A stretch of DNA of 63,687 nucleotides, counting the filler, from Kipferlia bialata (taxonomy: Eukaryota): NCBI GenBank assembly GCA_003568945.1. It is 4 parts of 4 records of this genome, joined end to end, with 100 filler letters (N's around TTAATTAATTAA, not from the genome) between each part and the next. Parts side by side here need not be neighbours in the genome. Positions count along the whole stretch, not along the records: positions 20,215 to 40,318 come from BDIP01000393.1; 3 more parts are not named here. The stretch is one strand, 5' to 3'. Positions 21,389 through 25,400 of the stretch are shown here, in pieces. The first letter of the stretch is position 1. Each line of letters begins with the position of its first letter. Under the pieces are notes generated by a model, which worked only from the letters and a program-made list of their open reading frames with translations, was not told the origin of the DNA and made no database searches. The translations under genes and the position numbers were made by a program.

Positions 21389-22409
21389 TCATATGTATAC
21401 ATACTTACCCCTAGGCCCTGGCACACTGCCGTTGAGGGCCACACCCTCTCTCTCTCCCTGTATCTCTCTCTCTCTATATATATATTCACACACACATATA
21501 TATGTAATTGTACTAATCTATAGACCCTGGCACACTGCCGTCGAGGGCCACACCCTGTATGGCCGGATAGCTGCCCTGACCAGCCACCAGCCAGACCAGA
21601 CAGGAGGTATATACACACACAGAGTAGGCCCTCTCTAACGTGACTACACATATATGTATTTGTATATATATAGTATATATAGTATAATACAGCTGCCCTG
21701 ACCAGCCACCAGCCAGACCAGACAGGAGGTATATACATGTATATATATATATATACATACATATGTGTATTTATTATAATAATGAAGTCTAATAATATTA
21801 TTGTATACATATATAGTATAATATAGCTGCCCTGACCAGCCACCAGCCAGACCAGACAGGAGGTATACACACACACACACACACATACATACATATGTGT
21901 ATTTATTATTATAATGAAGGATAATAGTATAGTGTAAATATATTGTATAATATAGCTGCCCTGACCAGCCACCAGCCAGACCAGACGGGAGGTATATACA
22001 TGTGTATGTATATATGTATCTATATGTACTATATATATATATGAATTCTATACTGACTAGCCACCAGCCAGACCAGACAGGAGGTGTGGATATTTATATG
22101 TGGGTGAATCTCTCTCTCTCCCCTCTCTCTCTACCCTCTGACCCCAGACGATGCCAAGAAGGTGCAGGACACTGTGGTGGGCGTGGCCTTTGGCAGTGAC
22201 ATGTCCATGGCAGACAGCCTGCTCAAGGTATATACATATACATATATATATATACATATATAAACATAAATAGTGTGTGTATCACGCATCAATATATATA
22301 TTGTATGTGGCCTTTGGCAGTGACATGTCCATGGCAGACAGCCTCTTGAAGGTATGTAGTAGTATATATATATACATACATATAGATAGTGTATATCACG
22401 CATTGTTCG

Positions 22410-22442
<33 letters not shown>

Positions 22443-25400
22443 TATGTGGCCTTTGGCAGTGACATGTCCATGGCAGACAGCCTACTTAAGGTATATATAC
22501 ATACATATACATATGGTAAATATATACTGAGAGAGAGATGCGTGTGTGATTCCATATTATGGATGTCTGCTTCTATATATACACTACATTATCTCACCCC
22601 CACCCCAGTACAAGTGCCTACCTAAGGTATATGTATTTATATATATATGTTTTCATGAATATATGGTATATATATATATATATACATATATAATGTGTAT
22701 TCACTACATTACCTCACCCCCACCCCAGTACAAGTGTGCCGAGACTGGCCGTACCAACACATCCTCCTTTGTGCTAGCAGGTCAGTGCATGTTTGTATAT
22801 GCACATATATATTGTACATATGTGTGTATGTATCCATTCCAATAACCCAACATCTCAATTACCACAATCATCTGTCTCTTTCTTCAAATGTATGTTGTAT
22901 CATTAATATCAGGCAAGACCTCCGGCCCCTCCTCTCTCCCTTTTTATATATATATGTATATGTATATATTATTGTTCTTAATACACTAATGCCAGGCAAG
23001 ATCTCCGGCCCCTCCACCGTCAGAGTCGGCATGCAGCTCACACCCTGCCTAGGTATGTCTATAGTATCACACTTGTATATATATATATGTATTATATGGA
23101 TTGATATAGCCTTGATATATGCGTATATATGAGTGTTGTATATGTTTAGGTATCATTGATATATATATATATGGCAGAGTCGGCATGCAGCTCACTCCCT
23201 GCCTGGGTATGTGGGATATTGATGGACACTCGTGTGATAATGTGTAAGTATATTTGACACTCACTCCAGGCTGGGTTGAGCCCACCAGGAGCATCCTTGA
23301 CATATATACATAGTACATATACACATATATATATAGTATGATCTCAATGACCCCAGGCTGGGTGGAGCCCACCAGGATCTCCCTCCCCAGTGGGGCCAGG
23401 GTGTACTGGAACAACACGTGCATCAGGTACAGGCATATATATTTGTATATGTATGTATCTGTATAACCGCAGGAAGGGCTCCTCCCAGATTGAGAGGGTA
23501 GTGTATTGTAATATAGTACATGTGTACTATTATCTACTTATAGAGTGTCAGTATATACATGCTATATTTCTATATAACCCCAGGAAGGGCTCTTCTCAGA
23601 TTGAGAGGGTGGTCCTGACCGACCTCAGCCTCCTGTTCTGCTCGGTGGACGCACAGGTATCTCTCTCTCTCTATATATGTATATATATATAATTGTATAT
23701 GTCTCATCAGACCCCCACGCAGCCTATACACATTGGCCAGCTATATACTACTGTGTGTATATACTTGTATATATCTCCTCAGACCCCAGGGCATCCCCAA
23801 CCTCAGTCTCTCTCTCTCTCTTTCATTGTATATTCATGTATATACTTTGGTATATCTATCACATCTATCCTCTGACCCCAGGGCATCCCCAACCTCAGTG
23901 CCCCTGTGCACACCCTGTCCATCACAGCAGACACACAGGTAGATACGGATATATATATATATCTGTAGATATATATGTATATAGACACACAGGTATATAA
24001 GCATATATATATATATGTATATATATATTAGTATATATGCATATATTATGGGTATACTTAGTGTTTGTGCCCCTGTGCACACCCTGTCCATCACAGCAGA
24101 CACGCAGGTATATATATATGTATATATATAGACACGCAGGTACATATATACGCATTGTTATTGAGGATATACTATATATACATAAGTGTATATATAGGTT
24201 TATATATATTAGAATATATTACTATATATACATAAGTATATTTATATGTTTATATATTTATTACCATGTGCACACCCTGCCCATCACAGCAGACACGCAG
24301 GTATATGCGAATATATACATATATATTCATATATATATTAGTATATATGCATATATTATGGGTATACTTTATGTTTGTGCCCCTGTGCACACCCTGCCCA
24401 TCACAGCAGACACACAGGTATATGCGAATATATATATATATATAGACATATATATATACATATATGTATATAGACACACAGGTATATAAGCATATATATA
24501 TATATATGTTAGTATATATGCATATACTATGGGTATACTTAGTGGTTGTGCCCCTGTGCACACCCTGCCCATCACAGCTGACACACAGGCATATGCGAAT
24601 ATATATATATATATACATCTGTAGATATATGTATTATTGTATGATTATGTATTTGTTAATATTCATATATATATATAGTGTATGTATCCCTGTGCACACC
24701 CTGCCCATCACAGCAGACACACAGGTATAGAGACACACACATATGTAGTATATGTATATATTTAGTATGAATGTCACTCGGAAGAATAGAGCTACAGTAC
24801 GTCTAGGGCGGGCCTGTGATAGTAACACTCATGTTGTGTATACCATTATTATTATGAGTAATTAACCCCAGGTCAGCCCCTGCGAGAGCGACACCCAGCT
24901 GTGGATAGGCAAGGAGAAGGGCGAGGCTGTCACCCTGACACTCACACACCCATCTGCAGCTGAGGAGCTGGCATCCATCCTAGTTGACCAGGTACTATTC
25001 TCTCTCTCTCTCTCTCTCTCTCCATCTACACCCTTTGTTCACCCTTAGGTCAACAAGCTGGGTCTCTGGGGCAGCAGGGGTGGCTGGAAGAGCAACAAGT
25101 ACGTGAAGAGTACCTGTATATGAGTATGAGTCATTGTAATTTCATATCAACATGTATGGGGGATAGTAGGGAGACAACAACCCAACGGTATTCATCTGTA
25201 TATTATATGTGTTCTAGAATTGTCAATATTGTGTAGGCATGTAATACACTTCTCCCTTACCCTGTATCTAACCCTCCAGGCACGGCAAGATCCAGCTCCG
25301 TCACTTCATGGTGTCTGGAAACACCATCAAGGTACAGTGTATATATGGTGTATATATATAGGATGTTAATATTCAAGCATGTAGAAGACAGTTACTCTGA

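Follow-up and report, generated by a model that had tools for sequence, protein, structure and literature searches.

Exon-edge copies in introns of Kipferlia bialata diverge mostly at silent sites, pointing to a likely origin from other alleles

Introns of the metamonad protist Kipferlia bialata contain partial copies of the edges of their neighboring exons, here called echoes, and these copies differ from the real exons mostly by synonymous changes. We studied them in 63,687 nucleotides (nt) of assembly GCA_003568945.1, the whole stretch being referred to as the window. It consists of four unrelated contigs joined end to end by N-flanked linkers (20115-20214, 40319-40418 and 60507-60606), the first contig being 20,114 bases long, and all counts given here are at the scale of the window. 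Overall, the codon signature exceeds a corrected null expectation and points, without proof, to an inter-allelic origin. We give an even chance to the explanation that echoes are real boundary duplications of the 'mirage' type and mostly represent fragments of other working alleles or haplotypes, acquired by inter-homolog recombination.

Exon chains were built by hand from splice signals and those that read open were retained, yielding 10 chains on three contigs with 119 exons in all, and with frames set by chain continuity independently of the echoes. Each exon was searched against its own flanking introns with a codon-blind, ungapped detector that returned a single false hit among 492 pairings of unrelated exon and intron. 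Six echoes of a gene with an uncertain frame (G9) and one low-complexity hit in G10 were omitted from the main count. This search identified 133 echoes at 67 of the 119 exons, in 65 of 109 introns. The 112 echoes anchored at a splice site comprise 48 of acceptor type (acceptor plus exon start), all upstream of their exon, and 64 of donor type (exon end plus donor), all downstream, with none reversed; one orientation per type is the only arrangement that tandem duplication across the boundary yields. The other 21 echoes are unanchored. The exon part of an echo has a median length of 25 nt, covers at most 86% of an exon and lies at a median distance of 116 nt from it. GT or AG is retained in 111 of the 121 echoes that reach the exon edge, and splice-site scores do not differ significantly from those of real sites. 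Median intron length is 102, 210, 323, 470, 541 and 591 nt for introns with 0, 1, 2, 3, 4 and 5 or more echoes, respectively (Spearman 0.83 over 109 introns).

The intron flanks behave differently from the exon parts. Among the nearest echoes, 24 of 76 have a flank closer to the real flank than all unrelated flanks are, 29 of 76 have a flank that looks unrelated, and in some arrays the units are alike along their whole length. Flanks mismatch at 28% of positions even next to 24 echoes that are identical to the exon, and divergence of the exon part does not correlate with divergence of the flank. Echoes show up to three states per site, and each has its own junctions, some of which are common to several echoes. 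Stop codons number 1 of 67, against about 3.5% expected. In a few cases echoes carry deletions, either in frame (3 or 6 nt, at 41124, 41264, 39685, 50278 and 19944) or out of frame (25813, 30040, 46978, 50742 and 43462). Three diverged echoes (49837-49863, 47319-47346 and 56205-56229) resemble orthologous coding sequence in combining several silent changes with one or a few replacements.

The pattern was first noticed in an array on the second contig, within a gene segment that forms an open AG/GT chain of 627 codons. Past the first 30 letters of the exon at 22148, the exons listed here are supported by the open chain. All features are on the + strand.

22148..22227, +, real exon ending in S-L-L-K with donor GT; open chain, and an RNA contig runs from 21606 straight into its first 30 letters
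22307..22351, +, donor-type echo 1 of exon 22148-22227, its last 45 nt plus GT; CTG>CTC and CTC>TTG, both Leu
22446..22490, +, donor-type echo 2 of exon 22148-22227, with the same 10-nt junction as echo 1; CTG>CTA and CTC>CTT, both Leu
22609..22627, +, hybrid fragment, acceptor and start of exon 22729 fused to another variant of the 22227 donor end; identified by eye from the sequence, outside the automatic tally
22729..22780, +, real exon; open chain
22913..22932, +, acceptor-type echo of exon 22996; ATC>ACC, a replacement
22996..23052, +, real exon; open chain
23175..23206, +, donor-type echo; two silent changes, ACA>ACT and CTA>CTG
23270..23290, +, acceptor-type echo of exon 23357; one silent change, GTG>GTT
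23357..23426, +, real exon; open chain
23473..23499, +, acceptor-type echo of exon 23584; TCT>TCC twice, silent
23584..23656, +, real exon; open chain

The automatic search of 22183-23612 recovered 6 echoes, in which 9 differing codons are synonymous and 1 is a replacement (ATC to ACC, in the echo at 22913) that the original prediction had not mentioned. In the gene segment as a whole, 23 of 29 differing codons are synonymous. Echoes 1 and 2 have an identical junction and identical first 36 nt, so that every difference between them falls within the last 9 nt. The original prediction, made from the sequence alone, held that echoes differ from exons mostly synonymously, and the exon/echo pairs it cited here and in other genes were all located. 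One of its examples is less clear: the GTG/GTA difference at 23497 is present, but it sits at the end of the homology and is ambiguous.

The bias extends across the window. Over 3409 aligned exon bases, differences at codon positions 1, 2 and 3 number 45, 35 and 123, placing 123 of 203 at the third position. Among 190 differing codons, 109 are synonymous and 81 are replacements (57.4% synonymous; 89 versus 67 with identical variants merged). When the same base changes were re-placed blind to codons in 1500 permutations, 27.5 +/- 2.9% were synonymous, with a maximum of 39.8%. The claim of mostly synonymous differences in the original prediction holds window-wide, in the sense of about 57% of differing codons. 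The bias depends on the reading frame, since 113 of 207 differences are synonymous in the true frame against 34 of 205 and 33 of 212 (about 16%) in the shifted frames. Twofold sites have 25 transitions and 8 transversions and fourfold sites have 27 and 42 (P=0.0007); this paucity of transversions at twofold sites indicates that the bias reflects true synonymy beyond mere third position. Intron bases adjoining the splice site differ at 0.11-0.25, similar to fourfold sites, indicating that the signal is a scarcity of replacements and not fast silent sites. The replacements are somewhat conservative, with a mean BLOSUM62 score of -0.29 against -0.58 +/- 0.12. With a lenient gapped search the counts became 139 silent and 157 replacement codons; this search over-extends into the non-homologous junction and counts some echoes twice.

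Several other sources of the bias were considered and rejected. CpG hypermutation accounts for few changes (11 of the 95 silent changes and 7 of the 74 replacements are of CpG type), and base composition does not explain why each of the four bases shows more fourfold than non-degenerate divergence. A silent rate that is higher in exons than in introns does not fit splice-adjacent intron bases that diverge like fourfold sites, and triplet stepping of a recombinase, which could give differences with a period of three, does not fit twofold sites depleted of transversions. Selection to diverge from the echo would be expected to favor changes at any echo site.

The original prediction also supposed that dead duplicates should differ from the exon blind to codon position, and this is incorrect, as the exon lineage itself fixes mostly silent changes. 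An exon and its dead copy accumulate 2ut silent and ut replacement differences, so the expected ratio of replacement to silent divergence is 0.5 and not 1, and the silent evolution of the exon explains part of the bias. Measured as non-degenerate over fourfold divergence, the ratio was 0.185-0.38 in all 18 combinations of alignment, echo choice and trimming, each below 0.5 with P<0.01. The ratio of nonsynonymous to synonymous rates (dN/dS) was 0.24-0.31, with a cluster-bootstrap value of 0.27 (confidence interval 0.19-0.37). Exon and echo differ at about 15% of fourfold and about 3% of non-degenerate sites, with intron flanks far more diverged. In simulations of dead copies analyzed with the same detector, the ratio averaged 0.52-0.56 and its minimum in 88 runs was 0.354, as compared with 0.221 observed, a value that allelic simulations with about 0.10-0.13 of extra functional time reproduced (0.22-0.24).

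These results bear on the possibility that echoes are dead copies of older exon versions, left by sister-strand tandem duplications and decaying neutrally while the exon fixes silent changes, with the value below 0.5 due to noise, one odd contig or alignment bias. Dead copies would explain much of the bias with no extra assumption, and looser alignment does lift the ratio to 0.38, yet they are rejected in all 18 settings and by all 88 simulations. They also predict a ratio of 0.5 to 1 between one echo and another, whereas adjacent echo-echo pairs (n=46) gave 22/177 fourfold versus 22/675 non-degenerate differences, a ratio of 0.26 (P=1.6e-5 against 1 and 0.024 against 0.5), and pairs with a shared junction (n=19) gave 11/88 versus 8/329, a ratio of 0.19 (P=0.0005 against 1). 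Dead copies should diverge jointly in exon part and intron flank, where we found no correlation, and they would hardly produce the three silent states seen at each of two neighboring sites of the focal array. Across echoes, silent and replacement differences correlate at -0.19, compared with +0.29 to +0.30 on average in simulations of dead copies of varied age. The dispersion of silent counts is low (0.70), though within the range of constant-divergence simulations. We consider dead copies an improbable explanation of the whole pattern.

In single-copy genes, a ratio below 0.5 implies that both lineages were under selection for protein sequence for most of their separation, and two such lineages are most plainly two alleles. 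The echo would then have been copied from the homolog, or the exon of the other allele recombined in beside it. In a simple two-parameter fit, selection acts over 80% or more of the path between exon and echo, and the extra, allelic silent divergence is near 0.10. We hypothesize four steps. A piece consisting of exon end plus donor is placed downstream of its own exon, or acceptor plus exon start upstream, as we observe. The outermost splice sites are used, as observed for five exons and presumed elsewhere, so that the mRNA is unchanged and the intron merely lengthens. The copied piece, or the exon later recombined beside it, would derive from another allele, which would leave both sequences under protein-level selection until recently. 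Finally, when an echo exchanges unequally with a homolog's exon, new echoes may arise that keep an old junction and receive a fresh splice-proximal end, while older echoes would decay neutrally and then vanish. The identity of focal echoes 1 and 2 outside their splice-proximal ends fits this exchange, as does a gradient in silent divergence: fourfold sites up to 10 nt from the splice site diverge by 0.21 and those farther away than 20 nt by 0.11 (P=0.013), with non-degenerate divergence flat. Intact GT/AG, undiminished splice scores and independently diverging flanks fit it as well. The suggestion of an allelic or exchange origin in the original prediction thus survives the stricter null and agrees with simulations, but the donor allele itself was not observed.

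A number of results weigh against an allelic origin, some of which would favor dead copies. The signal is uneven: the second contig has a ratio of 0.15 (P=5e-5 against 0.5), but the first (0.43, P=0.51, 8 arrays) and the third with the uncertain gene G9 included (0.35, P=0.12) are not significantly below 0.5. The 6 echoes of G9 (53457-54937) look neutral, with a ratio of 0.93 over 4 arrays, which may mean that the frame is wrong, that the gene is relaxed or that it is a pseudogene. Variants confined to a single echo comprise 24 silent and 29 replacement (45% silent), and the 13 echoes diverged by more than 12% look neutral (11 versus 26). Several of the shared junctions are mere CT or TA repeats, and some pairs have variants in common. 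Most exon frames are based on manual open chains rather than on RNA. The model needs silent diversity near 10%, a value taken from the fit rather than from species data, and no second allele appeared over 1374 bases of DNA contigs, which drop variants (exon, intron and echo depth 393-425), a stretch that points to a homozygous or haploid state in the sample. The ratio is 0.26 for the putative BRCT-like gene alone (P=0.036), 0.28 without the focal segment (P=0.007) and 0.25 with the G9 echoes and the G10 low-complexity match restored (P=0.0002 against 0.5).

Selection might also act on echoes indirectly. If array contraction or conversion of the exon installs echo sequence in the exon often enough, echoes with replacements or broken splice sites become liabilities, and the rest are kept as spare exon ends. 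This predicts depleted replacements, retained GT/AG and splice strength, and freely diverging intron flanks, all of which we see, and a second allele in the sample is not required. The lowest ratios lie close to the splice site (0.11-0.19 in the nearest 10 nt), one array shows a four-gamete incompatibility, and amphioxus mirages are described as unstable in length (PMC3087553). However, the gradient stems from fourfold sites, with no trend in non-degenerate divergence, and out-of-frame echoes and one stop persist. By our estimate, standing silent divergence near 0.15 would limit exchange to roughly 13 times the mutation rate, and a rough rate argument suggests that selection on such a load calls for several percent of diversity in the population, at which an allelic origin would already hold. 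Plain conversion of an echo with its own exon should be unable to lower the ratio below 0.5; exchange matters only with other alleles as donors, or if it exposes echoes to selection. We regard indirect selection as unlikely, though it is the main alternative.

We looked for use of the echoes in RNA. A contig joins five exons over 20368-21606 with no other letters and then enters the sixth exon at 22148, skipping the echoes that it crosses and carrying the exon variant at every informative site from 20368 to 21606. The run behind it is not recorded as RNA and is taken as such by guess, although its contig skips introns, and contigs conceal rare isoforms. The original prediction had allowed that echoes are sometimes used. 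They might be spliced into mRNA as alternative exon halves and kept by direct selection. Splice scores similar to those of real sites, in-frame deletions of 3 or 6 nt in several echoes and the conservative replacements would agree with this, and rare isoforms would be invisible in contigs. Against it, no echo contains a complete exon with both splice sites, as mutually exclusive exons require, in-frame and out-of-frame deletions are about equally common among the few seen, and an AG/GT pair permitting an in-frame swap is present in only 9 of 112 echoes. Together with the RNA contig, this leaves direct use unsupported, and we consider it very doubtful.

The echoes could instead be an artifact in which a short-read assembler stacked alleles or strains in tandem, an objection that the original prediction raised against itself. 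Echoes do resemble alleles, the K. bialata draft was assembled from Illumina reads with SPAdes from an organism reported as diploid (PMC5874029), and the analysis here used contigs. In a separate set of DNA contigs, however, single records run across exon and echo (21036-21347 and 20350-20986) with no other letters at a depth of 417-425, although the run used for this set may be the source of the window itself. A piece whose 31-mers are present 3.2 times in the window has a depth of 1400, about 3.3 times the single-copy value. Spanning contigs of uniform depth make stacking unlikely, as do echoes that are partial, have their own junctions (some of them shared) and show up to three states per site. 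We therefore judge an artifact to be extremely unlikely.

How might pieces of a homolog arrive beside an exon? Fornicates are reported to lack nonhomologous end joining and Rad51A and to have two Dmc1 paralogs (PMC8516963), and Dmc1 is reported to stabilize mismatched joints (PMC6719624), which would make mismatch-tolerant repair between homologs plausible; k-mers suggest that K. bialata is diploid (PMC5874029). We speculate that Kipferlia introns form a genome-wide archive of the exon ends of other alleles, laid down by mismatch-tolerant, Dmc1-based inter-homolog recombination. This broader proposal is tentative, and we hold it to be somewhat short of an even chance.

The closest known system is the mirage of amphioxus, described in Adh3, the globins BflGb6 and BflGb9, troponin C and PGBD5 (PMC3087553, PMC3902484). 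Mirages are minisatellite-like tandem copies of exon-intron boundaries, of 5' and 3' types, many with AG/GT and with normal splicing, and PMC3087553 calls the mechanism of their origin unclear. Kipferlia echoes share four of six mirage features: boundary-spanning copies, both boundary types, retained AG/GT and, in one RNA contig, normal splicing. In BflGb6, units are 81-100% alike along their whole length and evolve in concert; in Kipferlia such likeness holds for some arrays, and many units are alike only in the exon part. The sixth feature is a copy number that varies between haplotypes or somatically, the Kipferlia data coming from one sample. The Kipferlia case also differs in its protist host, in its density (65 of 109 introns) and in the rise of intron length with echo number. 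The word 'synonymous' is absent from the main text of PMC3087553, supplements aside. A 37-bp variable number tandem repeat in intron 7 of human F7 offers a donor-side likeness: its first repeat spans the exon-intron boundary, the downstream pseudo-donors stay silent although functional, and splicing takes the most upstream donor (PMC1557585). It is a single locus with near-identical units, and the abstract of PMC1557585 mentions no acceptor-side case or codon signal.

Two other systems show a comparable codon signature. Young duplicates inherit allelic divergence, and a duplicate formed between homologs starts with mostly silent, allele-level differences; heterogeneous gene duplications that join two alleles have reportedly been described (PMC6121789). 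Those duplications are whole functional genes kept by selection, whereas the echoes are non-coding scraps of roughly 25 nt. Allele-like divergence, with replacement well below half of silent, is present overall and in the second contig and non-significant in the first and third. Mutually exclusive exons are tandem exon copies with silent-biased divergence, but they have both splice sites and are spliced in, while echoes have one splice site and are skipped where checked. The available passages on the K. bialata genome, which report 124,912 introns and probable diploidy, make no mention of duplication or polymorphism, and none of five passages on repeats concerns introns (PMC5874029); those of PMC6679479 do not mention tandem or duplicated sequence. 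In the literature searched, which excluded most subscription journals, the 2002 Adh3 paper and supplements, we found neither a mirage in a protist nor a codon test applied to mirages. Echoes are a known kind of repeat that is, as far as this search reaches, new to the lineage and unusually dense.

These results suggest that mirages contain a codon-level clock that separates sister-strand duplication (0.5) from inter-allelic recombination (below 0.5), and the window favors the latter. If the allelic reading is correct, one genome records the allelic diversity of a population, with silent divergence near 10%, and a free-living fornicate provides evidence for cryptic sex or parasex. Such inter-allelic recombination would likewise determine intron length and account for the origin of mirages, which might generally mark highly polymorphic species, amphioxus and sea urchins among them. 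The arrays further offer a natural test of how splice sites are chosen, in that donors and acceptors of equal strength lie about 100 nt apart and are ignored. Of 174 spliceosomal proteins surveyed, K. bialata has 87 (PMC6679479). Should the pattern extend genome-wide, about 125,000 introns (PMC5874029) would supply very many such clocks, and a single assembly would suffice to measure recombination and diversity in a free-living relative of Giardia.

Four of the modelled genes are as follows.

20370..33666, +, host gene of the focal array; two modelled segments (24 and 13 exons) flanking an N gap, 46 echoes
34453..39982, -, second gene of the second contig; two modelled segments, 23 echoes
40868..52150, +, 28-exon gene; open chain, 49 echoes
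1767..5489, +, protein phosphatase 5 (PP5) gene; 20 exons, 4 echoes

The C-terminal zinc-finger region of the host gene has a weak match to the Rubicon-homology family (PF13901, E 0.086, below cut-off), and the protein may be PH-domain/PLEKHM-like. A homologue search with one 40-residue exon of this gene gave no match, a weak test with a single short exon. The 28-exon gene is putatively BRCT-like by its motifs, and two of its exons searched singly had no Pfam match. The 20-exon PP5 model translates identically to K. bialata P0001 (586 residues; one exon matched at 100%), with the Pfam domains Metallophos, TPR and PPP5. P0001 is the only member of its protein cluster, which thus holds no second strain or outgroup, and a metagenome scan with PP5 returned one intron-less TPR gene only, judged irrelevant. 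The phosphatase motif at 3790-3815 reads GDYVDRR, a residue also carried by P0001, where the usual consensus is GDxVDRG.

Further observations concern introns and sequence outside the modelled genes. GC-AG introns at 20614/20615 and 26682/26683 are required for an open frame, and the first matches the RNA joint. Across the window the acceptor consensus ends in a short AAC/CCC-rich motif immediately 5' of AG, as if branch point and acceptor were fused, a trait of diplomonad introns. Positions 1-1500 and 12300-19400 lie outside modelled genes, and a repeat scan there found almost no echoes. The stretch 14600-19400 has neither TA microsatellites nor echoes, in contrast to the flanking genes. At 8231-12140, a gene ends in a very long low-complexity coding stretch, of which the first 300 nt were translated; by eye, the first exons of this gene resemble TPR sequence. 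Outside the modelled genes, 14798-14824 and 14838-14864 form a perfect inverted repeat of 27 nt around a 13-nt loop.

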